Shown: piece by piece, positions 1 through 54,835 of the stretch
How positions within the stretch are numbered: the stretch's first letter is position 1
Layout: each line of letters opens with the position of its first letter
NCBI GenBank assembly: GCA_965287045.1
Contig: OZ336871.1
Location: forward strand, 56,296,001-56,360,000
Reading direction: 5' to 3'
Length of the DNA: 64,000 nt
DNA from: Carcharhinus amblyrhynchos
Taxonomy: Eukaryota
The notes under the pieces: model-generated
What the model saw: the letters and a program-made list of their open reading frames with translations, nothing else
Database searches by the model: none
Told to the model about the DNA's origin: nothing
Translations under genes and position numbers: made by a program

Positions 1-1760
1 GGCCAACATTTGTTGTGCATCCCCAACTGTCCTTGAGAAAGTGGCGAGCTGCCTTCATGAACTGCTGTGGTCCATTTGGTATAGGCACATCTGCAATGTT
101 GTTAGGGAGGGTGCGCCAGTATTGTGACCCAACCGCAGTGAAGGAACAGGGAAATATTTCCAAGTCAGGATGGTGTGTGACTTGGAGGGAAATTTGCAGA
201 AAGTGGTGTTGCCATGCACCTGCTGCCCTTGTCTTTCTAGAATCTGGTGGTTATTGGTTTGGAAGGTCTTGTCTAAGGGTGGTGAGTGAGTGGAATCGGC
301 TGCCATCAGTGGCGGTAGAGGCGAACTCTCTGGGGCCTTTTAAAAGACTTCTGGATGAGTACATGGGATTTAATGGGATTGGGAGTTATAGATAGTTCTA
401 TGGCCTGGTAGGTATGGATATGATCGGCGCAACTTGTGGGCCGAAGGGCCTGTTTGTGCTGTAGTGTTCTATGTTCTAAGAAGCCTTGATGAGTTCCTGC
501 AGTACTTCTTGTAGATAATATACACTGCTGCTACTGAGCATCAGTGTTGGAGCAAGTGGATGTTTATGGATGGGATGCCAATCAAGTAGGCTACTTTGTC
601 CTGGATGGTGTCAAGCTTCTTGAGTGTTGTTGGAGCTGCATGCATCCAGGCAAGTAGAGAGCATTCCTTCATACTCTTAATGTGCCTTATAGATGGTGGG
701 CAGCCTCAGGGAGCAATCTTGCCAGCTCATCAAGTGGCAAACTGGCAAGATCAGGCGAGAGGGGTAAAACAGGGTTCACGGCCAGTTCCCCGCCTCTCAT
801 GATGCTACCGGCTCAGATCTGCTTGAGGTTGATTTAAATATTCATGATGTTGCGGGTGGAATCTAAAGGGATGTGGGCTTATGGGGAAGGGTGGGGCATA
901 AAGGGGGATGGTCCAATGAAGGGGAGCCAGTGCATTGGGGAGCTCAATAGGTGAGGATACTTTGCACCAGGAATGACTGTGGTGGTGATCAGCCGGGGTA
1001 AATGGGAGTGTTGATTGGTCGGGTGAGAGGAATTGGGGACAGCAATTTGCTGGGGAGTGCAAAAATAGAGGTGGCAATCCACTGGGGGGTGGGGTCATGA
1101 TCAGGGGGAGCAATCGGGGGCAGGGAGTGTTGGGATATCCGGGGGGTTGGGGTGTGACAGATCTCAGTGCACTGTGTACACTGAAGATCAGGGCAGCTGT
1201 GCAATAGCATTCCTACAACTCAGCAGCTAGCTTCCTGGCATGAATTGGCTCTGCCCACTCCCCCTACTGGTGACCATCACATTTTGCCTCATTAACGATT
1301 GCACCCAGATGCTCGCCCAAAATACAGGTGGGATTCTCTCCTGTTTTCATGTTCATTTGATACTTAGAAGTTATTTGTTAAGATGGCCCATTTAGACTTT
1401 GACCTGTTCTTGTAGCCACAGAATTTATATGGCTAGTCCAGTTCACTTTCTGGTCAATGGTAACCTGCAGGTTGTTGTTAGTGGGACATTCAGCGATGGT
1501 CATGCCATTGAATATCAAGGGCCAGTGATTAAAATCTCTCTTGTTGGTGACAGTCATTACCTGATACTTGTATGGTGTGAATTTTGCTTGTTATCTGTCA
1601 TCCCAAGCCTGCATATCATCCACGTCTTGCTGCATTTGGACGTGGGCTGCTTCAGTATCCGAGGAGTCGCAAATGATGCTGAACATTATGCAATCATCAG
1701 CAAACATCCCCACTACTAATGTTATGATGGAAGGAAAATCATTGAAATCCAAAATGCAAT
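1..1760 (-). mobile_element. Degraded non-LTR retrotransposon (CR1/L2-group, 'LINE family B'), RT and 3' end, interrupted by younger inserts
   Basis: Minus-strand RT motif 'VGMFADDCIMFS' (ORF 1591-1815). The 3' terminus at 1-60 is homologous to the + strand copy ending near 49790. Interrupted by a CR1 3' end (278-474) and an unclassified GC-rich insert (~700-1390). Confidence 0.7.
278..474 (+). mobile_element. 5'-truncated CR1 LINE 3' end with 6-bp TSD
   Basis: Encodes a CR1 ORF2 C-terminus (RVVSEWNRLP..VEA..FKRLLDEYM). Has the 3' stem-loop GGGCCGAAGGGCCTG and a (TGTTCTA)n tail. TCTAAG is repeated at 272-277 and 475-480. Confidence 0.9.
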
Positions 1761-1782
1761 TGGCCCCAAGAGTTTCACATAA

Positions 1783-1945
1783 AGGATAATTGTTTTGTAC
1801 TAATCTTTTCTCCAATAAAGATATCGCTTCTATTAATTTTAATCACGATAAAGATACTGCCCCATTAATCCTAAATTCAATAAAGATACTGCCCATATAA
1901 ATCCCAGCTTTAATAAAGATATCACAGTTATTTATCCATCCAAAT
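1783..1945. repeat. Degenerate 33-bp minisatellite, block 1
   Basis: Tandem units resembling AATAAAGATACTGCCCCTATTAATCCTAACCCC. Confidence 0.7.
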
Positions 1946-3107
1946 AGAGAACATAAAATAAATGAACTGGGGTAGACTATAAAGGCTTTGAGCCTCCTCC
2001 ACTATTCAGTATGACTGTGGCACATTTTCTGTCTCAACTCCAGTTTCCCGCCCAGACTCCCAGAGGGATCCACACTCTGTCTGTCTCAGGCTTGAATATG
2101 TTCAGTGATGGAACCTCTGGGTTAGAGCTCCAAAGAAATACAACATTCTGAGTAATGAAAATTCTCATCTCTGTCCTAAATAACTAGCAACTTACCCTGA
2201 GACAGTGTCCTCTACATCCATTCTAGATTCCCCAAAAAGGGGAAACAATCTTCTGGTGTCCACTCTGTCAGCTACTCTTCAGAACCTTCTAATATTCAAT
2301 GAAATTGCTTCCTGTTCTTTTAAAGTCCAGAGAGTATCAGCCCAATTCACTCAGCCTCACATTAGAGAGCAACTGTCTCATCCAAGGAACCAATCTAATG
2401 AACCTTTGCTGTGCTGGCTCCAAGGCAAATATATGCTTCCTTAGAAATGGGGACCATAACTGCACACAGTATACCAAGTGTGACCTGAGCAATTCTCTAT
2501 ACAATTAGAAAAAGACTTATTATTTTACTTCAACCCCTTTGCAATAAAGGCAAACTTGCTATTTGTCTTCCTAATTGTTGCTGTATCTGCACACTAACTT
2601 TCTACATTCCTTGTACTTGCACACTTAAGTCTCTATGGCCATCAAGACTAAAAGATTAAAATATTAACAGAATACTTTTTTGAAGTATTCCAGTTTCTAT
2701 TGTTACCACAAAGCAAATTACCTGATACTTCCCAGATTATACACTGTCTGCCACCTTGTTGCCCATTCACTTAATCTGTCAACATCTCTTTGTATCCTCC
2801 TTACAGATTGCATTTCCACCATGTACTATCAGTGAATTTGGATGCATTACTCTTGCTCTCTTCACCTTAGTTATTGAAATAGATTGTAAATAGCTAAGAC
2901 CCCGCATTGATGCATGTGGCACTCCAGCAGTTATAGCCTGACAAGGTGAAAATGCTGCATTTATTCCAACTCACTAAATCCTGTTCATTGCCCAATTCTC
3001 CATCTAAGCTAATATATTATTCCAAACACAAGCCCTTATTTTGCATATTAACCTTTTACATGGCACCTAAAAGAATTTTTATCTAAGTGTATTCTTAAGA
3101 CTTCATT

Positions 3108-3798
3108 AAGAACATAAGAAATAGGAGCAGGAGTAGGCCATCTGGCCCTTCGAGCCTGCCCCGCCATTCAATAAGATCATGGCTGATCTGTCGTGGCTCA
3201 GTTCCACTTTCCCGCCCTCTCCCCATAACCCTTAATCCCCTCTCTTATCAAAAACCCATCAACCCGCTTCTTAAAAATATTTAGCGAGGCAGCCTCCACC
3301 ACTTCAACGGGCAGAGAATTCCAGAGATTCACCACCCTTTGAGTGAAGAAGTTCCTCCTCAACTCCGTTCTGAACCGCCCCCCCTTTATCTTGAGGCTGT
3401 GCCCCCTAGTCCTACTGTCTTTTTTGAGCGGGAAGAGTCTTTCCACCTCTATCCTATCCATCCCATTCATCATCTTATACGTCTCAATGAGATCTCCCCT
3501 CATTCTTCTAAACTCTAACGAGTACAAGCCTAGTTTATTCAGCCTCTCCTCATAGCTCAACCCCCTCAACTCCGGTATCAGCCTAGTAAACCTCCTCTGC
3601 ACTCCCTCCAAGGCCAAAATATCCTTGCACAGGTGCGGCGCCCAAAACTGCACACAGTACTCCAGCTGCGGCCTCACCAATGCCCTATACAGCTGCAGCA
3701 AGACCTCCCTACTTTTATATTCAATCCCCCTCGCTATGAAGGCCAGCATCCCATTCGCCTTCCTGACCACCTGCTGCACCTGCAGGCTGGGTTTTTGC
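3108..3798 (-). mobile_element. Young 5'-truncated CR1 LINE (RT C-terminal part plus 3'UTR)
   Basis: Open frame 3198-3842 encodes CR1 ORF2 C-terminal motifs (LYRALVRPQLEYCVQFW, RRMRGDLIETYK, FFTQRVVNLWNSLP). Ends in a (TTCTTATG)n tail. Confidence 0.95.
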
Positions 3799-4258
3799 AG
3801 ATACCAATAATAGCAGATACCAACATTTTTCCAACTATTCATGTTAAGCTAACAGTATGGCCTGTATTTCCCTGCTTTTTCTCTGCCTTCTTTTTTGAAT
3901 TGTAGTGTTATATTTGCTGACTTCCAATCTAATGGGACTATTCTAAAATCTAGAAATGTAGGTAAATTATAAGCAATGAACCCAACTATCTCTGCAGCTA
4001 CTGCTTTTAGAACTCTAGGATGTAGAACATCAGCTCTTCAAGATTTGCTGGCTTTTAGCTCCATGAGTCTTTCTGATACTTTTTCAATGCTGATATTAAT
4101 TATTTTATGCTCCTCAGTCTTATTAACCTCTTTGTTACATTCTATTTCAAGATGTAATTTGAGTCATCCATTATGAAGTCGGAAACAAAAAATTTTATCT
4201 CCAATATTTTCATCACATGATCATTTTCTGTCTGTGCCTACAAGGAACCAGGAACTTT

Positions 4259-4395
4259 AGCAAAAGGCAAAATACTGTAGACGCTGGAATCTGAAACAAA
4301 AACAGAAAATGCTGGAAAAACTCAGCAGGTCTGACAGCATCTGTGGAAAGAGAATAGAGCCAACATTTCAAGTCAGGGTTACCCTTCCAAAGGTA
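4259..4395. mobile_element. Penelope-like short repeat fragment
   Basis: Same family as 11110-11530, 43893-43997, 57024-57115 and 61116-61290 (shared AAAATGCTGGAAAA..CAGCAGGTCTGACAGCATCTGTGG). Confidence 0.55.
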
Positions 4396-5067
4396 TTTTT
4401 CAGTCTACTAACTAAATTAACGATAGCCTACTCTCCTGTCATATCAATGTAATTGGCTTTATTTTTGCTTACAATTCTTATTTTGGACTCAGATTTGTCA
4501 GTCTCAAATTTAACATAGAAAAACAATTGTTTTTCTGAGGAGATCTTTTGTTTCGAGTTTATTAATTAGTTCAGAATCATTGCACAATGCTAGATCTAAA
4601 ATAATTTTGTCTCAAGTTGGTACCACAAAATATTGTTCTAGTAAGCTGTTCCATAAACAGTCTACAAATTAATCTTCCAGACTACCTTTGCTAACTTAAT
4701 TTGTCCAGTTTATATGAAGATTAAAGTCCTAATGATTATTACATTGTCTTTATTATAATCTCCAAGTGTTCTTGCTTAATGTTCTGTCTAATGGTATAGT
4801 GACTATTAGGAGATCCATAAAACATTTCCTCCAGCCTTTGTTATTCCTAATCATCCTTACTGATTCTGTTTCTTGGTCCTTTCTTTCAAGATTCTTTCTT
4901 CCTACAGTCCTTATGTTATCCTTAATTCTTAGAACTACCCCAACTCTTTTCCTTCCTGCTTACCTTTGTTGGGAGGAATCTTACTGGCCCTACAGGAGTA
5001 AGTTTGGAAGTGGTTCAGGAAACAAAATTTGGAAGTTACTTGTTGAATCAGCTCCTCAACACATTCA

Positions 5068-5976
5068 TAAGAACATAAGAACATAAGAAATAGGAGCAGG
5101 AGTAGGCCATCTAGCCCTTCGAGCCTGCCCCGCCATTCAATAAGATCATGGCTGATCTGTCGTGGCTCAGTTCCACATTCCCGCCCTCTCCCCATAACCC
5201 TTAATCCCCTCTCTTATCAAAAACCCATCAACCCGCGTCTTAAAAATATTTAGCGAGGTAGCCTCCACCACCTCAATGGGCAGAGAATTCCAGAGATTCG
5301 CCACCCTTTGAGTGAAGAAGTTCCTCCTCAACTCCGTTCTAAACTGCCCCCCTTTTACCTTGAGGCTGTGCCCCCTAGTCCTACTATCCTTTCTGAGCGG
5401 GAAGAGTCTCTCCACCTCTATCCTATCCATCCCATTCATCATCTTATACGTCTCAATGAAATCTCCCCTCATTCTTCTAAACTCTAATGAGTACAAGCCT
5501 AGTTTATTCAGCCTCTCCTCATAGCTCAACCCCCTCAACTCCGGCATCAGCCTAGTAAACCTCCTCTGCACTCCCTCCAAGGCCAAAATATCCTTGCGTA
5601 AGTACGGCGCCCAAAATTGCACACAGTACTCCAGCTGCGGCCTCACCAATGCCCTATATAGCCGCAGCAAGACCTCTCAACTTTTATATTCAATCCCTCT
5701 CGCTATGAAGGCCAGCATCCCATTTGCCTTCCTGACCACCTGCTGCACCTGCAAGCTGGGTTTTTGCGACTCATGCACAATGACCCCAAGGTCCCTCTGC
5801 ACCGTCACCTGCTGCAGTTTTTCGCCACGTAAGTAATAATCCTTCCTACCATTATTCCTACCAAAGTGGACTACCTCGCACTTGCCAACATTAAATTCCA
5901 TTTGCCATTTCCTGGCCCATTCACCCAGCCTATCTAGATCCTTCTGTAGACTCTCCACACCCTCCGCGCAATTTGC
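5068..5976 (-). mobile_element. Young 5'-truncated CR1 LINE with 6-bp TSD
   Basis: ORFs 5677-5979 and 5167-5670 are one CR1 RT frame split by a single TGA. CATTCA flanks the element at 5062-5067 and 5977-5982. About 30 differences in ~680 bp versus 3108-3798 (hand count). Confidence 0.95.
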
Positions 5977-7394
5977 CATTCAGCAGTGATGGGTAGGCAA
6001 TTGGGATCAGTTAATTGTCAATTCAACAGCATACGGAGCACTTGTATGCAGCCCAAAGACCTCTCCCCTGTGGTGTCAGCCCCTTGGCAAGTGAGCAGAG
6101 CCTTGTTAAATTTAAGGCTAAAGGCCTCACAAGTAGAAAATGGCAAGGCTACTGTCTGTCCATATTGCAGTAATGCCATTCAAAGAAGAAATTATGGAGG
6201 CAGATGTCACCCACCGATGGTCATATGCCATGAACCTTATATCCATGACAGTAATGGTGACTGCAGTTTCCCCTCGACAACACCATAATTCAGTGCTCCC
6301 ACTGGTTTCACAGTGGTGTGAGTGGGAGGGAGAGGGAGGGGCATGGTGGATGCCTTGCCTCCGTCACAGGTATCCACCTGTTGTCTTTCACTGGACTGCA
6401 AACACAGCCTTTTATTTGCCACCTCCCTGAAAAGACTCCTTCATCAGCACATCTGAATGATCCTGATGCCTACGTATGTTCTAATTGTGTATCCTGGAAT
6501 ATCCATTTCCCACCTTGAAGCCTTGTATTTGTCATCGTAATTACTGTCAACTATGCGTCTCTACTTACATCACTAAATCATTTACCCTCTTACATGCATT
6601 CAGATGAAGAGCCTTTAATTTTATTATTTTGCCAGCATTATCTGCATAGACCTTATCCATGCATTGTTATTGTCAAACTCTTCCTGCCCCATTCAGCCTG
6701 TCTTTACCCAAAATTGCTACACTGCACAATTGCCTTGACCTTTTTGTTTGAATTTCTATGTCAACGTCACTTGACCACAACCACAACCACACCACCGTGC
6801 CCCTCCCCCCCCCCACAAGCAAATTCCCACTTCTTTTATTTGGAGCTCTATCCATATCTCTAGCTATATGATTTGCCAAGATGTTGGTGCCAGCCCAGTT
6901 TAATTGAAACTCATCCTAAGGGAATGGTTCCTTCTTTCCCCAATACCGGTGTTCCAAATAATGGATACCCTTCTTCCCACACCACACTTTGATCCACATG
7001 TTTAATTCTCTAAGATGCTTAATCCCATATCACTTGGCATGTGATTCAGGTAATGATCTAAAGATGACTGCCTATGTGCTTCTGCCTTTTCATCTGTATC
7101 CTAACTGCTCAAACTCTCTCAGCAAAATATCATTCCTAGTTCTGCCTATGTAGCTTGTTCCTACATGGACCACATCAACTGAATCCACCTCCTCCCACTT
7201 CAAATTCACCTTCAGCCTTCAGGAAATGTATTTAACTCTGGCATGGGCAAGCAGCAAAACCTTTGGAACTCTCAGTCACATCAGCAGAGAACAATATCTC
7301 TTCATCAGACTATACTATCCCCTTCCACCACCTCATTTCCCTTCACTCCCAGGCTTCGTGCAACATTGTACAGTGCACCCTTTGCCTTAATCTC

Positions 7395-15900: not shown

Positions 15901-18554
15901 CATGTTTATGCATAGTCTCTATTTTCTATTTTCCCAGTTAATTGTAGCCAGTTCTCTACTCATATCTATTAATTGGCTTTATTTAAGTTTAACATTTTCG
16001 TTTGTGTTTGGAATACATCACCTTTAAACTTCACATGGAATTTACTGGTATTATTTTCACTATTTAAGAACATAATGCTGCAGACAAACTGTGTTTATTT
16101 CTTCCCACCATCTGTCCATAAGCAGAAGGTGTTTTGAATGATCTTTAAAGTATGCAGTGGCTTTTGTCTCAAACCCATGGTTTGCCTGACCCAATTTGCT
16201 AATAACCCACAGTAAACTCACGTTGTGCCTAACTCAGAAGGTTAGTTTATTTCACATTCAAAACCTGGGGAAGGAGTGTTTTCACCTTCCCACTCTACCA
16301 CAAATGCACATACTATAGGAAGTGGGGTGGGTATGTGATTAAAAAAGATTTTACAACTATGATAATAATAGTACACAGGCCACAGAAATGAGTATTAGTT
16401 CACATAATTCTCAAAGCCCAAAGTCCGATAAAGAATTCTTTCACATAGGAGCTTGAGTTCAGCTGGCTAAAGACTGAAGTTGTGGTATTCATTTTACAAC
16501 TGATGCTGAATCCACAGGATGAAGAAGGCACACAGAGATTGGATCAGTTCTGCAGGCAATGGCTGGATATCTTCCAGCAGAGACAGATTTTGATGGGCAA
16601 GCTGTTGTTCTGCCAAGGACCTACTTCTTGATGGTTCACCTGTTGGATGTTAGACTGCAGACTGACTTTAAGGCCAAAGTTGTACGGGGGGGATTGGCTG
16701 GGCCCGCAAGCTCGGATCATGAATTGTGATTACCTGAAGAATTGGGAGTAAACTGAGAAAGGGTTTTGCGCTGGGTGCCAAAGCCTCTGTGACCCTCCCC
16801 GACCACACTGCTAGCCCTAATTGGATACTTTGAAGTGGTTTGCAAAACAGCAAGTGAAATCATAGGCTGTCAATCGAGATTTTAACCTATCCACATTGTG
16901 GTCAGGATCAATGGGGTACTTACAGTGCAGTCAACTATGAAGGGAAATTGAAATAAACGCAGGTGGCTGGAGGATAATAGCCATCTATTGATTTGATAGC
17001 CAAATCTTTTAGGAGGCACTGCCATTGAACTTGTTACAGACCATAGGCTTCAAGTGCAATTGAGAGGGCTTTGACGATTTCTGCTTATTGTGAAGCAACT
17101 TCAAATCAAAGCTGTTTGCATACAATGGGGCTGACTGTTCAGTTGGGTAGACTGCAAACCACGGCCTCCCTTCCCACACAGGTGAAATTGACATATTTTC
17201 CCTATTGGAGGACTTCAAAGGGGTCTGCATTCGCATGTAGCTTCTGACAGGAAGAAAAGAAAATCTCTGTTGCAGAATGTAGCCCTTCAATGATTTAAGC
17301 TCCTACCAGGTGACCAGGGTAGGGGTGGCGAGCATGGAGGTTAAAGTGACTTGGCCACTTCAGAACTTGCACAGCTGACAGGCAGGAATGCAGAAATTGT
17401 GCCACGGTCAGTCTGCTCATCTACTTTGCGGTTCTGCTCCTCATCCACACAAAGGCAAACACCCAATACCTGTTGGATCACAGGGCTGACTGAAATCACC
17501 TTGCCAGGATGATCTTCAGGTAGGCCTGGGCTAGAAGTGGCAGTCCAGCCAAGATACCCCCATTCTAATGGAGAATGGTGAGGTCAGCCCCTTGCTTCCA
17601 GCCCGAGCCTATCAATTCCCCAGGACCCTCGAATGCATTTATACCAATTTGTTTGACACAGTCTACATGAAAACTAAAGTCACCCACAATGATTAATAAA
17701 TATCCTTTGTAAAAAAATCCCTTATTCAATGATCTGCCCAATGGTATAACTGCTCAAAGAGCGCTTGTAAACTACACGCACCAGTGTTTTCTGACTCTTG
17801 ATATTCCTAATTTCTACTGATAATGACTCCAATTCCTGATCAGAGGCCAATGTTCCTTCTCACTAATGTTCTTATGCCATCCTTTACTATAAGGGATACC
17901 CCACCTCCTTTCATATTCTGTCTGCCTTTCCAAAATATTGTCTACACTGGATTATTTATTTCGCAACATTGATCATCTTGTAACCATTGTCCTGTAATGG
18001 TGATCAGATCTGAATCACTTGCCTCTATTTGTGTCATTAATTCTATTATAGATACTTAATGCATTCAGAGAAAAATGCCAATTACTTCTATTTCCTGCAA
18101 TGACCTTATTCACCACCATCCACAATTTGCTAAACTCGCTGTCCCTTCCTGTCCCACTTTGCTTGTCTTTACCCACATCATTATACTGTTCTGATACATT
18201 GATCTTTCTCTCCTTCACCCACCCTCCCTCTCCATTAGCTTAAAACCCTGTCCACAGTTCTAGCTGTGCAATTAGTCAGGGCATGAGTCCCAGCCTCATC
18301 CCAATGGAATAGCTCACTCTTCCCTGAGTACTCACACCAGGGCCTCTTGAGTAAAAACCTTTTCTTTCCACATTAATCTTTGAGCCATGCATTTAATTCT
18401 CTAATCTGTTTAACCCTGTGCCAATTGGCATGTAGCTCAGTTAACAAACCACATATGATTCATTTTGATGTCCTGCATTTTAATTTGAACTCCTACTCCT
18501 CAAACTCTCTTAGCAGAACATTATTCCTGGTTCTACCTATGTCACGAGGAGATA

Positions 18555-19259
18555 ATGGCTGGGAACCATGAGCAGGAGGAGGTCTCAAGGGCTGAAGAGA
18601 AGGGAGGATGGACGACTGTTAGGAGGGGAAAGAGGAAGAAGAAGAGTAGTCAGGGTCCCCCGGCCTCCCCGGAGGCCCCCCAAGGTTCGTCGACAGGGGC
18701 ACAGAAAAATAGGAAGGAAGGGGAGACTGACTTAGAGGGACGGAAGGGGGCTGGTAAGGTGATAGTGGTAGGGGATGGGAGGGTCCGAGGGATTGATAGG
18801 AGGTTCTGTGGGCAGGGGCGCGACTCCAGGATGGTGGTCTGCCTCCCTGGAGCAGGGGTAAAGGATATAATGGAAAGGGTAGAGGGAATTTTGAAAGGGG
18901 AGGGGACCCAGGCAGAGGTCATAGTACACGTAGGGGAGGGGGATATAGGAAGGAGGAGTAGGGTAGAGGTCCGTAGGCAATTTAGGGAGTTGGGGGCCAA
19001 ACTAAAGAGCAGGACCTCCAGGGTGGCACTGTCTGGGTTGCTGCCCAGTACGAGCAGGGCTAAGAATGACGAGATCATGCAGTTGAATGCATGGTTGAGG
19101 GACTGGTGTAGGGTAGAGGGGTTTACTTATGTGGATCACTGGGAGGTGTTTAGGAGAGAAAGGCAATTGTACAGGAGGGGTGGGGAGGATTTGAACGGGA
19201 GGGGGACTAGTGTCTTAGCAGGGAGGTTAGCTGGGGTGTTCAGGAATGATTTAAACTAA
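18555..19259 (+). CDS. CR1 ORF1 protein, SGNH/GDSL esterase-like domain (probably 5'-truncated)
   Basis: Motifs VIVVGD, VVCLPGA, VIVHVG..D and WLRDWC..EGF..VDHW. The frame is open back to the element's 5' junction, so the true start may be missing. Confidence 0.88.
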   Translation: MAGNHEQEEVSRAEEKGGWTTVRRGKRKKKSSQGPPASPEAPQGSSTGAQKNRKEGETDLEGRKGAGKVIVVGDGRVRGIDRRFCGQGRDSRMVVCLPGAGVKDIMERVEGILKGEGTQAEVIVHVGEGDIGRRSRVEVRRQFRELGAKLKSRTSRVALSGLLPSTSRAKNDEIMQLNAWLRDWCRVEGFTYVDHWEVFRRERQLYRRGGEDLNGRGTSVLAGRLAGVFRNDLN

Positions 19260-19280
19260 TAGGGAGGGGGGGTGGGGAGG
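19250..19280 (+). promoter_or_regulatory. Candidate -1 ribosomal frameshift signal: U UUA AAC plus downstream G-quadruplex motif
   Basis: Heptamer 19250-19256 is in the ORF1 frame immediately before its TAA, and its -1 frame is the ORF2 frame. GGGAGGGGGGGTGGGG starts 5 nt downstream. Confidence 0.6.
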
Positions 19281-22136
19281 TGGCTTGGAGAGAGACGGGT
19301 GAAAGGAAAATTATAAGGGAGAAGGTGGTTCCGAGGGACGCTTGTGGGTTGAACTGTGTCTGTTTCAATGCTAGGAGTGTGGCAGGGAAAACGGATGAGC
19401 TTAGGGCCTTGATGTTTGTGAGGCAGTTAGATGTGGTGGCTGTAACGGAGACGTGGTTACGGGAAGGGCAGGACTGGCAGCTGAATGTTCCTGGGTACAG
19501 GTGTTTTAGGTGTGACAGAGGAGGGTTGAAGAGAGGTGGAGGGGTGGCACTGTTAGTCAAGGAAAACATCACAGTAGTGCAGAGGGAGGACGATATGGAA
19601 GAGATAGGGATTGAGTCGTTGTGGGTGGAGTTGAGGAATAAAAAGGGAGAGATCACATTGCTAGGGGTGTACTATAGGCCACCCAACAGCCCAAAGTCAG
19701 TGGAGGAAGGCATTTGCAGGGGCATTTTGGATAGGTGCAGGAAGAATAGAGTGGTTGTAGTGGGTGACTTTAATCTTCCAGGAGTGAATTGGAGGGGGCC
19801 TAGAGCTGGGGGTACGGAGGGAGAGGAGTTTGTGAAATGTGTTTTGGAAGGGTCGCTGGAGCAGTATGTAACTAGCCCGACTAGGGGAGGGGCTATACTG
19901 GATTTAGTGTTGGGAAACGAGCCGGGGCAGGTGGGTGAGGTAGAGGTAGGCGAACATGTGGCTAACAGTGACCACAAGTCCGTCTACTTTAGGATAAAAA
20001 TGGAAAGGGACGAGTGACGTCCGAACGGGAGTGTGCTGAACTGGGGAAAGGCGAGCTATAGCCGGATTAGGAGGGAGCTGCAGCAAACTGATTGGGAGGG
20101 ACTGTTAGCTGGCAAGTCCACGGTTGGCAAGTGGGAGGCTTTTAGGGACAAAATGAAATGGTTGCAGGGGAGGTATGTTCCGGTTAAGCAAAAGGATGGG
20201 AAAGGTAGGATTAGAGAGCCGTGGATTACGGGGGATATTGAAGACTTGGTCAGGAAGAAGAGGGAGGCGTATGTTAGGTCAAAACAAATGGGTACAGAGT
20301 GTGCGCTGGAGGAATATAGAGAGAGTAGGAGGGAGCTAAAAAGGGGAATTAGAAGGGCGAAGAGAGGGCATGAGATGGCTTTGGCTGGTAGGATTAAGGA
20401 AAATCCTAAGGCATTTTATTCCTATATTAGAGGCAAGAGAGTAGTTAGAGGGAAAATTGGTCCTCTTAGGGACAAGAGTGGAGAGTTGTGTATTGAGTCG
20501 GAGGGAATGGGGGAGCTCCTGAATGAATACTTTGCGTCGGTATTCACGAAGGAGAGGGGTTCGGAATCGTGCGGTCTCTTGGAGGGGGCGGAGGTTCAGT
20601 TGCAGGATATAGTTATTACGAGAGAGGAAGTGCTAGGGCTTTTAGGTAGCGTAAGGACGGATAAAGCTCCGGGGCCTGATGGTATTTATCCCAGGCTGCT
20701 TAGGGAGGCGAAAGATGAAATTGCTGGGCCTCTGGCGCACATCTTTGTCTCTTCTTTGGACACAGGTGAGGTCCCAGAAGACTGGAGGGTAGCAAATGTG
20801 GTCCCGTTGTTCAAAAAAGGTAGTAGGGATAACCCTGGGAATTATAGGCCGGTGAGTTTGACGTCGGTGGTAGGGAAGTTAATGGAAAAAATACTTAGGG
20901 GTAGGATGTATGAGCATTTGGAGAGTTGCGATCTGATTAGGGATACGCAACATGGCTTTGTTAGAGGGAGGTCTTGCCTTACGAATCTGGTGGAATTCTT
21001 TGAGGAGGTGACAAAAACGGTTGACGATGGGAGAGCCGTTGATGTCATCTATATGGATTTCAGTAAGGCGTTTGACAAAGTCCCTCACGGTAGGCTGGTA
21101 GAAAAGGTTAAGGCGCATGGGATACGAGGCCAGGTAGCTAGGTGGATTGAGAACTGGCTGGGAAATAGGAGACAGAGGGTAGTTGTGGAGGGGACCTTGT
21201 CGAGCTGGAGGCCAGTGACCAGTGGTGTGCCGCAGGGCTCAGTACTGGGACCTCTCCTCTTTGTAGTCTACATAAATGACTTGGAAGAGGGCGTAGGTGG
21301 TGTGATCAGCAAGTTTGCTGATGACACCAAGATGGCAGGGTTGGCGGGTACGGAACTGGAATGTCAGGTGATACAACAGGATATAGATAGGTTGGTGCAG
21401 TGGGCAGATAGGTGGCAGATGGAATTTAATCCTGACAAATGCGAGGTGATGCATTTTGGACGGAATAATGCAGAGAGGAGCTATGTGATAAAAGGTAGAC
21501 AGATTAGGAGTATAGACATACAGAGGGACCTGGGAGTGCAGGTTCACAAATCCATGAAGGTTGCGTCACAAGTGGAGAACGTTGTTAGGAAGGCTTATGG
21601 GATGTTAGCCTTTATAGGAAGGGGCATAGAGTATAAAAGCTGCCGTCTAATGCTTCAGTTATACAGAACGTTGGTTAGACCGCATTTGGAGTACTGCGTC
21701 CAGTTCTGGTCACCTTATTACCGGAAGGACGTGGAGTCTCTGGAAAGGGTGCAGAGGAGGTTTACCAGGATGTTGCCTGGCATGGGGGGACTGGGTTACG
21801 AGGAGAGATTGAAGAAACTGGGGCTATTCTCCTTGGAAAGACGGAGATTGAGAGGGGACATGATAGAAGTATATAAAATACTGAAGGGAATAGATAGAGT
21901 TAATAGTGAGAGACTGCTCCCTAGACTGGGTACGAACACGAGAGGTCATCATTTAAGGGTGAGGGGGGGGAGGTATAATTTGGAGGTGAGAAGAAGGTTC
22001 TTTACGCAGAGGGTTGTGGGGGTCTGGAACGCGCTACCGAGTAGGGTGGTGGAGGCAGGAACGTTGGACTCGTTTAAGATGCAGTTAGATAGGCACGAGT
22101 GAAACGAGAATGGAGGGATATGGTAGGGGCTATTAA
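19250..22136 (+). pseudogene. CR1 ORF2 (APE endonuclease plus reverse transcriptase) with two lesions
   Basis: EN motifs NARS, VTETW, YYRPP, VGDFN, LDLVL and SDH; RT motifs NYRPVSLTS, QHGF, DFSKAFDKV, GVPQGSVLGP and KFADD. In-frame TGA at 20015-20017. An apparent 2-bp deletion near 22096 stops the frame at 22102; the expected MEGYG-type end finishes at TAA 22134-22136. Confidence 0.93.
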
Positions 22137-22326: not shown

Positions 22327-23746
22327 CGGTAGACGGGCGCCGCAACAGCTCAGTGACTAGCACTGCTGGCTGTGTAGACACATGGATTTGGGCCTGTGTC
22401 TGTGGGAGTTTGCGCATTCTCCCTGTGGTTGCGTGGGTTTCCTCCGGGCGCTCCGGTTTCCTCCCACACCCCAAAGATGTGCTCTTAGGCTAATTGGTTT
22501 TTACCAAATTGACACTATTTCTTCCCTGAATCTGACTCAGTAGGGTCCCATTCGTAGACATGCAGGGTAGAATAGGTGTAGGGTGATGCGGCGGCGCGGG
22601 CTCGTTGGGCCGAAGGGCCTGTTTCCCGTGCTGGGTTGTTCTTTGTTCTTTGTTCTTTGTCACCCATCACCACAACTGGATCTGCCACCTCCCACTCAAA
22701 GTTACTCTATAGCCACAAGGAGATGTCCTTAATCCTGGCAACAGGCAGGCAATACAACCATTGAGCTGTAGAGAACGGTATCCATCCCCATGGTTATACT
22801 GTTCTCTATCACAACTATAACCTCTTCACTCCGCATACCTGAATGACATCCTTCACCATGTGCCATGGTCAGTCTGCTCATCCACTTTGCAGTTCTGCTC
22901 CTCATCCACCCTAAGGCAAGCACCTCATACCTGTTGAACATGGCCAGAGGCTGATGCTCCTCCATCACGACATGTCAGGTTCCCATATCTGCAGGATGTG
23001 CAGTCATACTCCCCTATCCCTGGTCACTGACAAACTTTAAAGTTCTGCTTAGCCTTTAGGTGCACCTGGAATAAAGCATCCAAGTATTGTTCCCCATTCA
23101 CAGTGTCAATAACACTGAGCTGAAACTCCTTAAGCTACAGATATTCATGACAGACAACACTGCTGTCCAGACGCTCCCACATTCCACATCACCTGCCCTA
23201 TCATCTTTTTATATGTTAATTATGTGTTCCTTAATTCATTCATAATTAATAAACCCTATTACTCCTAATAACCCACTACTGCTAACAAATCTTATTTATA
23301 CCAATAAAACCTTGTAATTATTGATAATTTATGCACTTTTGAAAGAAAAAGGAACAAAATACTCACCAATCAATTACTTCACTGTTTCCCTGTGACCCTG
23401 TGACAATTCTTTAATTGCTGTTGGTCCACAGACTGAGCCCCCATGCTGGCTCTGCTCTTTAGTGGACTCTCTCCTCTCTCTCCTCACTCTTTAATGGACT
23501 CTCATCTATGTCTCCCCACTCTCTTTCAGGGAGTTTTGTCATTCTCTCTGCTCTTCAATGCCCTCTCTCTCCGTGCTGTTTAATGGACTCCCACCTCTCA
23601 GTGCTGTTTAACGAGACTAACTTTATATTCTAGATTACGTGATTGAATTTAAATTCTACCAGCTGCCAAGGTGGACTTTGAACCTGTGTTTCTCTCTGCT
23701 ACAGACCCAGTACTGCACATAAACCACATCATCACATGACCTTGTC

Positions 23747-24094
23747 AATCATAGAATCATAGAACCTTACAGTGCAGAAAGAGGCCCTTTGGCCCATCGA
23801 GTCTGCACCGAACACAATCCCACCCAGCCCTACCCCCATATCCCTACATTTTTATACCCACTAATCCCTGTAACCCACGCATCCCAGGACACTAATGGCA
23901 ATTTTAGCACGGCCAATCTACCTAACCCACACATCTTTAGACTGTGGGAGGAAACCAGAGTACCCAGAGGAAACCTATGCAGACATGAGGAGAATGTGCA
24001 AACTTCACACAGGCAGTGACCCGAGCCGGGAATCGAATCCAGGTCCCTGGAGCTGTGAAGCAGCAATGCTAACCACTGTGCTACCATGCCACCC
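23747..24094 (-). mobile_element. HE1-type V-SINE with CR1/HER1 tail
   Basis: tRNA head with A and B boxes, V-domain, and tail ending (TCTATGAT)n. Confidence 0.9.
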
Positions 24095-25113
24095 AAATCA
24101 CAAATCAAAAATCCCAGGGGCACGTAAATAAACAAAAGTCCTTAAACTCTACCTGACAGAACCATTTGCAAGGTTGAAATGAATAATTATCCTGCTCTCC
24201 CAGCATCAGAGTTGCAATCCCCCCAGATATACTAACTGCCTGCTGCATAAAGCTGAATTTTTAAACGTTCCCTTAAACACAAATATATTGCACCAGCATC
24301 ATCACAGAAACAAAAGGAAGCAATATTGTTTTGAGAAATATTTTTCACATTGTGTACATGCAGATGAGGTGATCAGGAGACACTTGAGGTGATTCTGTTA
24401 CTGCCTGCTGCCGATAAAGGATGGATAAAGTTCCTATTTGCTCAAACAATACTTCTTGCAGGCATAGCTGAGAGTTTGGGATTATAGAATCATTCCAGTG
24501 TGTCAGTTATTGTGGCACATCTTTAACCTTTTGCTGAAGAGCAGGTTTTGCTATTGGAATCCTTTGGTACACTTAGTTTTTGAAGGAAGAAAAGGAGGAA
24601 ACATAAAATAGTGCTTGATGCAGGCTGCACCAGAAGTGTTCAGCACCCCTTTTCACAAATCAGGTATTCTCACATTCAGATCTGCACATGAGTTGCACAT
24701 GCTAATCTGCACAATTTAGCAGAGGATTAGTTCATGCGGAGGTTCCAAATCTCAAGGGAGGTCCGGTCATGTCAGCTTCCTGATAGCATGAAAGTGATAT
24801 GTGAAAGCCTGACTAATGTTAGAAAATGCTTATGCGTACACAAATAGGGAGAGAATGTCAGAGATCTGCATCTGATTCACAGCAGGCTGGATTTTGTAAC
24901 TTCTGGTGGGCAAGAGCAGGAAGCAGTGCTGGTGTGAGTACAAGCTTAATTCCCACTGAATACTTATTGAATTCAATCTGATGCCACATGTCACATTTGT
25001 CCAAGTTCTGTCTCTAGTATTTATCTCACCAATAAAAAATAGTTCCGTGGTCTTAACCTATTTAGCTGTCCCCTTAAAACTAGTTTATAATGTACATAAT
25101 TGGGATGGAAAAT

Positions 25114-25426
25114 TAGAATCATACAACCCCACCAGTGCAGATAGAGGCCACTCAGCCCATCGAGCCTGTACTGACAACAATCCAACCTAGGCCCTATCCC
25201 TTTAACCCCACTTAATTACTCTGCTAGTTGCACTAAGGGACAATTTAGCATGGCCAACCAACCTAACCCGCACATCTTTGGACAGTGGGAGGAAACCAGA
25301 GCACCTAGAGGAAATCTACGCCAACATGGGAGAACATGGAGACATTGCACAGACAGTGACCCAAGGCCAGAATTGAACCCAGGTCCCTGCCGCTGTGAGG
25401 CAGCATTGCTAACCACTGTGGCGCCC
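25114..25426 (-). mobile_element. HE1-type V-SINE with CR1/HER1 tail
   Basis: Same head, V-domain and tail architecture as 23747-24094. Confidence 0.88.
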
Positions 25427-26471
25427 ATTCAATGTTGGTGGACGTTGAGATAGCATTATTTTTTTCTTACCTTTTCTACCATCTTCACAAAAATCGTTGT
25501 TTATGGAACCAAATAATTTTCAGGTTTCTTCTTTATTGCTATTGTTATTGTGTAACTTGCAGCTAACAAAATCCAGGAAAGGGAATCACGTGAGTTTCCT
25601 CATTGTAGTGCGTGATTTAGATATGGTGCAAAATTTCAAGAGCTGATCATCACACGTGGGTACAATGATGCCCAAGAAGGTATGGACAGAACTGCCAATA
25701 TTTTTGGAGTCATATTTATACCTGGGTATGCGTGAGAGGGCCTCTTTCCATTGCTTTTTCGTCACTAGAAGAATTGTAACTGTGCAGCTACACTACCTGT
25801 TCCAGACTAATCTTCAGACAAATGCAAGAAGTGTTGTGTAGCTGGTCATCATGCAGTAAATACCTCTGCAACAGGATCCATCCAAATCAGCCAATGCTAT
25901 CCATAGAAGCATAAAGCAATACGATGTGTTATGCTTGTAAGGAAGAACTCCTTCGCATCTTCACCTGCAATAAGGGAGCAATAGCTGGAGAGGGCATAGA
26001 ATTCTTTTCCATGTCAAACTTCCCAAGAATGTTGGCAGTATAAATGTACCCATATGACTGGACCTCATCCCCCTTTATGCAAAAACATTGCAACGTATGC
26101 ATATTTACTACCAACTTCTTATGGGTCCTTAAGATTTATGCTCTACATCACTTACGTAATAAGAGACTGCAAAGAAAATTAGGAAGGAATATCTTATACT
26201 CTTTGCATTCTATGTCCTTGAGGGTACAGTTATGAATTAGTTTTCTACCCCAATAAAAATCATAATGAATGCAATATTTGTCTGCGAGTGCTGTTTGGAA
26301 GGCCTGGAAGCATATGCACATTCTTCTGCCATATTGTTGATGGCATTAGCATGTATACAGTGACCATCTGCTGGAAGTATGCAATGCAGGTATATCATGA
26401 TGTTAATCAACGTGCAATACTGCACTGACGCCAACAGTGCCACTTCTGGGCACAATGCTGCTGCTAACATT

Positions 26472-52529: not shown

Positions 52530-54835
52530 AAGGAGAATTGATAATGGAAAACAAGGAATGGCAAATGAATTGAACAGGAATTTTGCATTGGCCTTCATCA
52601 GAAATAGCTGTAAATCAGGAATTAGAAGGTAAGGAGAAACTCAAGAAAATTTATAATCACCATGGAAGTGGTTCTGAGACAATTGTTGGACCTGTGGGAT
52701 AACAAGTCCTGAGGCCCCGATAGACTTCATCCTAGAGTCTTAAAAGAAGTGGCTAGTGAAATATTTGAAGTGCTAGTATTAATTTTCTAAAATGTGCTAT
52801 ACTTGGGGAAGGTCCCATTAGTTGAAAAATAGTATATTGAACTCTTTTATTCAAAAAGGGAAGGTGTCAGAAAGAGGAAACTACAGATCAGTTAGTTTAA
52901 CCTTTGCATTGGGAAAATGTTAGAAGCTATTATTAAAGATGTTGTAACAGAGCACTTTGGTAAATTTGAGGTAATCAGGCAGAATCAATATAGTGTTATG
53001 AAAACAAAATCACGATTAACCGACATACTGGAGTTCTTTGAGGAAGTAACATTCTGTGGATAAAGGGAAACAGGTGGACATACTGTACTTAAATTACCAG
53101 AAACATTCAATAAGGTGCCACATCAAAGATTATTGCAGAAAATGAAAGTTCATGTTGTAGGGAGTTACTTACTGACATGGAAAGTAGGCATAAATCGATC
53201 ATTTTCTGTTTGGCAAGATGTAATGATTGATGGGCCACAGGGATCAGTACTGGGACCTCAACTGTTTACAATTTATGTAAGTGACTTAGATAAAGTGACT
53301 GAAGGGATTGTTGGTAAATTTACTGATGACACAAAGATAGGCAGAAAAATAAGTTGTGAAGAAAAAAACAGGGAGGATACAAAGTGATATAGATAGATTA
53401 ATTATATTGGTAAAGATTGGCAAATGGAGCATAACGTGGGAAAAGTAACATTTTCATTTTTGGAATGAAGAATAAAAAAGAAGCATATTATCTAAATGGT
53501 GAGAGATTGCAAAGCTCTAGGATGTGTCTCAATGCATGATTCGCAAAATGTTAGACTGCAGTCACAGCAAGTAAGTAAGGAAACTGATAAAATGTTATCA
53601 TTTATTGCCAGGGGAATTGAATACACAAGTAGGGGGGTGTTATACTTCAGTTATACATGTGAGACCACACCTGGCGTACTGTGCACTGTGTTGGTCTCCT
53701 TATTTAAGAAAGGATGTTAATGCATTGGGAGCAGTTCAAAGTTTTACTAACCTAATGCCTGGAACAGGTGAGTTGTCTGATGAGGAAAGGTTGGACAGGC
53801 TAGGCTCATATTTGATTGAGTTTTGGTGAGAGGCAACTTGACTGAAATATATAAGAGCCTGATGGGTCTTAATAGGGTGGATTTTTTAAAAAGTCATTTA
53901 TGTGATATGGTTGTCACTGGTTGGTCCAGCACTTATTGCCAATCCCTAATTGCTCTTGAACTGAGTGGCTTGCTAGGCAACTTAGGAGTCAGCCGTGGAT
54001 CTGGAGTCACACGTAGACTAAACCAGGTAAGGACAGCAGATTTCCTTCTCTAAAGGACAGCAGTGAACCCAGTGGATCTTTACAACAATCAACAATGGTT
54101 TCATGGTCATCATTAGACTTTTAATTCCAAATTTTTATTGAATTCAAATTTCATCTTCTGCCATTGTGGGATTTGAATCCTGGCCCCCAGCGCATTACTC
54201 TCAGTCTTTAGCTTACTTCTGCAGTGACAATACCACTGTGTGGAAAGAATGCTTCCTCGTGTGGGAGAACCTAGAAATAGGGGTCACTGTCCAAAAATAA
54301 GAGATGAGGAGACAAAATGTAATGAATCCTTTGAATTATCTTCCTCAAAAGATATGGGCGATGTGGTGGCACAGTGGTTAGTACTGCTGCCTCACAGTGC
54401 TGGGGATCCAGGTCCAATTCCAGCCTCGGGTGACTGTCTGTGTGGAGTTTGCACATTCTCCCCATGTCTGTATGGGTTTCCTCCCACAGTCCAAAGATGT
54501 GCAGGTTAGGTTGATTGGCTAGGCTTAAACTGACCCTTCTATCATGGGCATTGGCAGGGTTATGGGAATAGGGCCTGGGTGGGATTGTGGTCAGTGCACA
54601 CTTGATGGGTCGAATGGCCTCCTTCTGTAAAGTAGGGATTCTATGATTGGAAGTAGAAGCAGGGTCTTTGAATATTTTTAAGGCAGAGGTGGATAAATTC
54701 TTGATAAGCAAGGTGACAAAAAGTTATTGGGGGTAGGTTGGAACGTCGAGTTGAGGTTACAATCAAATCAGCTGTGATCTTATTGAATGGCAGAACAGGC
54801 TCATGGGGCCAAGTGGCCTACTCCTAATTCATATG
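52530..54835 (+). mobile_element. Decayed CR1 RT and 3' end, with inserted SINEs
   Basis: GPQGSVLGPQLF..KFTDDTKIG and RPHLAYC..WSPYLRKD. Contains a tRNA-SINE (53880-54237, minus) and an HE1 SINE (54356-54648, plus). Confidence 0.85.
54356..54648 (+). mobile_element. HE1-type V-SINE with CR1/HER1 tail
   Basis: Complete head, V-domain and tail. Confidence 0.9.

Follow-up and report, generated by a model that had tools for sequence, protein, structure and literature searches.

A conserved slippery heptamer at the ORF1-ORF2 junction of CR1 retrotransposons points to a probable polymerase fusion made by -1 ribosomal frameshifting

The stretch of DNA analysed (the window) comprises 64,000 nucleotides (nt) of Carcharhinus amblyrhynchos (GCA_965287045.1, contig OZ336871.1, positions 56,296,001 to 56,360,000 of the forward strand). 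It contains a copy of a CR1-type long interspersed nuclear element (LINE) with two open reading frames (ORFs). From the comparison of copies and homologs, we conclude that CR1 probably makes ORF2 as an ORF1-linker-endonuclease-reverse transcriptase (RT) fusion by programmed -1 ribosomal frameshifting, as in retroviral gag-pol. The reading is strongly supported because the slippery heptamer is conserved at the nucleotide level, the heptamer is swapped in a distant lineage, the -1 register is kept and the linker to the endonuclease is open. Across the sequences compared, the junction signal is a real, deeply conserved feature.

The element in the window is a young CR1-type LINE, present there as one dead, 5'-truncated copy in a 2.9-Gb genome. 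It begins at 18543, inside ORF1, where the match to other copies starts. The stop at 20015-20017 is private to it (0 of 29 other copies examined carry a stop there). Because of this truncation and the private stop, the claim concerns the CR1 family and not the window copy. The young family has 1394 candidates in the genome, the best matches being 99% identical, and the closest named relatives of its ORF1 come from sharks and rays. The features of the window copy are as follows.

18543..19259, plus strand: ORF1 remnant with an SGNH esterase fold, its Cys-rich N-terminus missing in the window copy (Pfam, structure profile, copy alignment)
19250..19256, plus strand: slippery heptamer U UUA AAC in the X XXY YYZ register, spanning the last two ORF1 codons (sequence; conservation)
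19257..19259, plus strand: ORF1 stop directly 3' of the heptamer, TAA here and TAA, TAG or TGA in other lineages
19256..19360, plus strand: 35-codon linker from the shift site to the endonuclease, open in the -1 frame
19262..19277, plus strand: G-rich element, a three-tier G-quadruplex (G4) motif in the young family, with core G at 19267-19271 (+11..+15) and 19274-19276 (+18..+20)
19361..22102, plus strand: ORF2 with APE endonuclease and RT, NARS motif at 19367-19378 and private stop at 20015-20017 (Pfam, alignments)
19412..19414, plus strand: first in-frame AUG of ORF2, within the endonuclease domain (copy alignment)

An earlier note on this sequence had described the junction, and its coordinates were all confirmed. 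ORF1 ends GAT TTA AAC TAA with the heptamer in register at 19250-19256. The -1 frame opens at 19250, after a TGA at 19247-19249, and continues into the endonuclease (PF03372). The heptamer is followed by UAAUA and then by GGG-A-G7-U-GGGG (19262-19277). The AUG at 19412 lies downstream of the NARS motif, as the note had said; as the first methionine of the -1 frame, it is codon 52 in 28 of 30 young copies. This AUG corresponds to about residue 31 of the L1 endonuclease (by alignment offset). It lies 16 residues into the Pfam match, so a start there would cut the endonuclease domain. Both ORF2 domains were found by Pfam (PF03372, E 9e-16, from residue 39 of the -1 frame; PF00078, E 4e-34), and the endonuclease gave a weak match to L1 endonuclease structures. 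The sequence TTTAAAC occurs 22 times in the window, so a single site means little; the weight lies on conservation across lineages. A second heptamer-like sequence, G GGA AAG, was seen upstream at 18626-18632, in the ORF1 register.

The heptamer was present in 30 of 30 young copies, which carries little weight at 99% identity. As these closest copies are uninformative for conservation, diverged lineages were sought. The genome was searched with five diverged ORF1 homologs and further matches were fetched, giving 193 loci, of which 146 were distinct after removal of duplicates; 27 further young copies are excluded from the lineage counts. Junctions were placed from ORF1 protein matches lacking the last 8 codons, which kept the anchoring non-circular. 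Clustering on the upstream DNA only, at a cut of 27%, gave 16 lineages, 8 of them with at least two in-register copies.

The stop was at the predicted place in 118 of the 146 distinct copies, and the exact TTTAAAC preceded it in 104 of these 118. Among the 28 out-of-register copies, upstream indels had displaced an exact heptamer and its stop in 17, the site was one edit away in 10, and 1 lacked it. In each of the 8 multi-copy lineages, TTTAAAC gives the commonest base at all seven heptamer positions; the stop varied between TAA, TAG and TGA. Leu was TTA in 8 of 8 lineages and Asn was AAC in 8 of 8. These two codons make up 13% of the Leu and 39% of the Asn codons, respectively. Before TTA stands a codon for Gly, Asp, His or Thr, with T as its third base in 8 of 8 lineages. 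In an empirical null over 160 ORF1 columns, only 3 of the 48 residues that are invariant and degenerate had one codon throughout the eight lineages, and among 109 variable columns 7 kept their third base. Compared with this null, the fixed junction indicates a constraint on the RNA and not on Leu-Asn. The expectation that heptamer and -1 register would be conserved was thus borne out among the genome copies; the three-tier G4 with 1-nt loops after a 5-nt spacer proved to be specific to the young family.

In old-family copies, which are too decayed for codon tests, the heptamer plus stop was found within one mismatch in 24 of 53, compared with 0.9% in shuffles. Contigs of four runs from related organisms showed differences of at least 10% at 19235, 19241, 19245, 19247 and 19249, and none at 19250-19265.

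Outside this genome, 13 of 14 homologous proteins ended in Leu-Asn (LN), and the 14th, from Xenopus, ended earlier. A profile search was reduced to 150 representatives at 50% identity. After re-anchoring without the LN end, 87 representatives finished 3-14 residues past the anchor, 52 of them in LN and 10 in Gly-Asn (GN). There were 94 distinct C-terminal tails among the 50%-identity representatives: 65 ended in Asn, among them 49 in LN and 10 in GN. In 60 of the 65 Asn-ending tails, the residue before Asn was Leu, Gly or Lys, which are the residues that X XXA AAC allows (background 0.29). The residue before LN was one without a possible T-ending codon (Glu, Gln, Lys, Met or Trp) in 1 of 49 tails; at the next positions upstream, such residues occurred in 16 and 18 of 49. 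Before GN, Gln was found in 9 of 10. Named LN-stop proteins came from a snake, the Komodo dragon (a monitor lizard), turtles, a swallow, a turaco, Xenopus, an eel and a sturgeon. Amniote and teleost junctions are represented here by their protein ends only.

DNA of the GN type was obtained by a metagenome scan that gave three loci, one of which (L284) ends before the ORF1 stop and another (L283) 26 nt after it. Both loci reaching the stop (L282 and L283) read G GGA AAC TAG in register, followed by G tracts. ORF2 of L282 follows in the -1 frame and has an RT half with 42% identity. Judged from these sequences, the swap between U UUA AAC and G GGA AAC is the strongest single argument for tandem tRNA slippage. 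Among viral contigs nothing relevant was found; there was one weak match, at a locus that looks phage-like by its ORFs.

Some distant ORF1 homologs (P0102, P0099, P0116, P0068) end in ..GFLGRV, ..RFFR, ..EFFR or ..QFFH. Such FL/FF-type tails fit a heptamer of the U UUU UUA/U type and may represent a third swap, seen here from protein ends only.

The junction could also have been fixed by its protein. In this explanation, the esterase fold requires a C-terminal Leu-Asn, and both the -1 overlap and the G-richness arise as by-products of ancestry and strand composition. The sense strand is indeed G-rich (GC skew +0.32 to +0.44), and the lineages are related. However, other invariant residues change codons (the 3 of 48 above), and the change from Leu to Gly comes with the matching upstream base. 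Moreover, the G core occupies its position in 84 of 98 copies, compared with 0.1-2% at other offsets of the same elements. We consider a pure protein constraint very improbable.

Of the 104 copies, 80 yielded the endonuclease motif; its frame was -1 in 66, 0 in 11 and +1 in 3. The -1 linker was free of stops in 61 of the 66 copies, compared with an average of 1-5 stops in the other frames. The modal linker lengths (105, 117, 129, 132, 141, 147 and 150 nt) are all multiples of 3. In lineages 3 and 14, single copies also reach the endonuclease in the -1 frame. In the classes listed, the -1 frame extends 0 to 37 codons 5' of the heptamer before it closes, and none of these classes has a methionine in that frame within 15 codons upstream. 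An AUG or near-cognate start common to all lineages was not found in the first 12 codons.

Start codons nevertheless deserve attention, as ORF2 could instead be reached by termination and reinitiation. After terminating at the ORF1 stop, the ribosome would resume translation in the -1 frame from an AUG or near-cognate codon that overlaps the stop or lies close by, and the G-rich element would help to retain it. Precedents exist: SART1 uses UAAUG plus a downstream structure, and L1 ORF2 is translated by unconventional, AUG-independent reinitiation (PMC5972666, PMC3894237, PMC5009743). In CR1, 4 of 8 lineages have a UAAUA, UAAUU or UGAUU overlap, in which an ATA or ATT overlaps the stop much as in the UAAUG stop-restart. 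Of the 26 lineage 12 copies, 18 carry an AUG three codons past the shift site. The view that there is no usable AUG held for the young family but not in general, given that 37 of the 66 linkers contain some methionine. Reinitiation leaves unexplained the fixed synonymous codons, the fixed third base before TTA and the swap to G GGA AAC. In addition, the codon overlapping the stop is GAT, GTT or GAA in the four TAG lineages, only 3 of the 24 junctions of the old family have the stop followed by TAATG or TGATG, and no position of a start codon is common to all lineages. We therefore regard reinitiation as improbable, though as the more credible of the rivals considered. UAAUG coupling as a general rule, with a conserved SART1-type start over the ORF1 stop, was rejected across the lineages.

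The start codons just described count against frameshifting, and so do several other observations. In the distant locus L282, there are AUGs just 5' of the heptamer and just before the endonuclease. The endonuclease lies outside the -1 frame in 14 of 80 copies, presumably through later indels. The lineages are related and are not independent trials, so the counts and p-values overstate independence. The original search profile included the LN end and favoured LN matches. Finally, 29 of the 94 distant tails do not end in Asn, and the signal is not universal among esterase ORF1s.

Two copies or groups of copies stand out at the junction. In a young subfamily of lineage 12 (e.g. L124 and L128), the third -1 codon is AUG, where the older L125-L127 have TTG, and the heptamer is kept. 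This subfamily is a natural test case for frameshifting and reinitiation. In L123 (G000:C11:51485639-51489541), a one-base shift near the end of ORF1, apparently private, creates a joined ORF1-ORF2 frame of 831 codons.

The two frames could also be joined at the RNA level, by splicing, polymerase slippage or editing. The G7 run adjoins the junction. In addition, a single contig from one of the runs omits 19270-19393. However, the G run lies 3' of the ORF1 stop, the skipped segment has GG..AC ends, and contigs of the four runs have no joints at 19200-19310. The RNA from which ORF2p is made is the RNA copied into the genome (cis preference). Given this preference, the unfused junction that inserted copies retain, as seen in 30 of 30 young copies, makes joining of the frames in the RNA unlikely. 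Of the alternatives, we give it the least credence.

The stimulator is less clear than the shift site. The G-rich element at 19262-19277 is the top G4Hunter window of the coding region (2.85) and one of two canonical G4 matches there. By sequence, the three-tier motif is present in 29 of 30 young copies; the G7 run of one related organism lacks one or two bases in about one-third of the contig depth. Across lineages, the conserved part is a core of the form G5-NN-G3, 10 nt 3' of the heptamer, with G at +11..+15 and +18..+20. Of 98 copies, 45 could form a compact two-tier G4. Among the 47 copies with a compact motif, 45 have it beginning 5-6 nt past the heptamer, near the optimum of 6-8 nt given for G4-stimulated shifting on UUUAAAC (PMC3919603), and a two-tier G4 starting 6 nt after the site is found in lineages 11, 12 and 14 and in part of lineage 9.

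The earlier note had ascribed the shift to a three-tier G4 with 1-nt loops after a 5-nt spacer. Comparative evidence upheld the -1 frameshift and the fusion, but this form of G4 is family-specific: a three-tier G4 was found in 5 of 104 copies, with long-loop versions in 32 and two-tier versions in 52. On its sequence, a three-tier G4 is plausible for the young family and is not the conserved rule. Further points count against the frameshift reading on the side of its stimulator. Lineages 3, 8 and 10 lack a compact two-tier G4. The 10-nt distance of the core exceeds the optimum of 6-8 nt given for G4s (PMC3919603). The G-x-G core also reads as Gly-x-Gly, its two Gly codons being GGG in 8 and in 7 of the 8 lineages, and GGG accounts for 43% of Gly codons. 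A conserved Watson-Crick stimulator was absent as well (0 consensus pairs in 15 sequences, pseudoknots not being searched separately), and fold z-scores were mostly near 0. With no shared pairs and such z-scores, a conserved hairpin was rejected as the stimulator.

We see a G4 of some form as the leading candidate, at not quite even chances. A linear G motif bound by a protein seems rather unlikely. Somewhat less likely again is the absence of a real stimulator, in which case the core would reflect the Gly-x-Gly peptide or G-rich composition. The full reading, in which the polymerase of CR1, the retrotransposon that dominates in most non-mammalian vertebrates, is a Gag-Pol-like fusion made by an ancient -1 frameshift with an RNA G4 as stimulator (two-tier in most lineages, three-tier in the young family), is put forward tentatively. 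The same reserve applies to its corollary that such a natural heptamer-plus-G4 recoding signal was kept from sharks to birds, with the heptamer swapped in a distant lineage.

In the proposed mechanism of frameshifting, the Leu and Asn tRNAs on UUA AAC would re-pair with UUU AAA, and in the distant lineage the Gly and Asn tRNAs would slip on G GGA AAC. Most ribosomes would halt at the adjacent stop, and a minority would continue as ...DLN-LIGRGGGEVA..., so that ORF1p would be plentiful and the fusion scarce. The pause signal would be supplied by the G-rich element. Where four tracts are present it could form a G4 (three-tier in the young family; two-tier in lineages 11, 12 and 14 and part of 9), and otherwise it could work as a linear protein-bound motif.

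As in retroviral gag-pol and nidovirus ORF1a/1b, an in-register heptamer ends the first CR1 ORF and the -1 frame carries the polymerase ORF. The heptamers named as most prone to -1 shifting in mammals include both U UUA AAC and G GGA AAC (PMC5009743). In contrast to these viral systems, CR1 is a retrotransposon lacking long terminal repeats (non-LTR), no protease domain was detected and there is no conserved pseudoknot or hairpin. In CR1 the stop is always the codon next to the heptamer, and the element on the 3' side consists of a G tract. In reporters, a G4 placed 5-8 nt after UUUAAAC gave up to about 7% -1 shifting (PMC3919603). The compact CR1 motifs begin at a similar distance, but most lineages have at best a two-tier G4 and three have none. 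[quoted passage not shown] However, the PRRSV motif is C-rich and bound by nsp1beta/PCBP, whereas the CR1 motif is G-rich and a candidate for binding only. Like SART1 and L1, CR1 has a bicistronic LINE RNA with ORF2 beginning at or near the ORF1 stop; unlike these two, which make a separate ORF2p, it has a conserved slippery site and no conserved start codon.

A literature search covering sources other than the original CR1 descriptions and Repbase notes found no proposal of frameshifting for CR1. The word 'frameshift' was not found in the available text of two CR1 surveys and an esterase structure paper (PMC13343379, PMC4316615, PMC3905857). In the accessible parts of PMC4255032 and PMC1925062, the frameshifts mentioned are of the decay type only. 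Some Penelope-like elements are described with a frameshift and a pseudoknot (PMC8557442). As of 2016, a natural example of a heptamer combined with a G4 was 'not currently known' (PMC5009743), and natural G4-assisted shifting has been described at codon repeats in human genes (PMC12809536).

ORF1 itself is related to known esterases. Its Pfam matches are of the SGNH type (OSK above the cut-off, Lipase_GDSL_2 below its own), and it matched the ZfL2-1 esterase 4c1b with E 4e-36 (A1 profile). The catalytic Ser and His are lost in the ORF1 of the young family (L001-L030; window 18543-19259): GDS has become GDG where the frame reaches it, and DGLH has become GGED in 30 of 30 copies. The 'esterase' of this young, abundant family is accordingly predicted to be a pseudo-enzyme. 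The RT half of ORF2 is 47% identical over 379 amino acids to an esterase-plus-RT LINE protein of a swallow. As birds are reported to carry CR1, R2 and RTE only (PMC11835228), the RT may, judged by identity, group with vertebrate CR1 rather than with L2.

The window copy is nested in an older CR1 on the opposite strand. This diverged host element had been said to keep a decayed version of the signal, and its junction does read as quoted:

18218..18245, minus strand: decayed junction of the older CR1 copy hosting the young element (sequence read)

At 6800-7302 on the minus strand lies the end of another old CR1 ORF1, whose decayed junction is succeeded by ten consecutive G. Further CR1 ORF2 fragments were seen at 1400-5950 (minus strand) and 52650-53820 (plus strand). 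A short interspersed repeat, apparently a short interspersed nuclear element (SINE), occurs in several copies (22350-22500, 23870-24130 and 25200-25430), recognised by eye from similar translations.

How LINEs translate ORF2 has been described as an open question (PMC3894237), and CR1-group elements make up 22-34% of shark and ray genomes (PMC13343379). The whole signal is shorter than 30 nt, and its natural variants provide built-in controls (three-tier, two-tier or no G4; U UUA AAC compared with G GGA AAC). If the frameshift reading is correct, CR1 would use a third, retrovirus-like route to ORF2 beside the reinitiation of SART1 and L1. The start of ORF2p would move, and annotations from the first AUG would cut the endonuclease. 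The polymerase would be tied to the ORF1 particle, and the ratio of ORF1p to ORF2p would be fixed.

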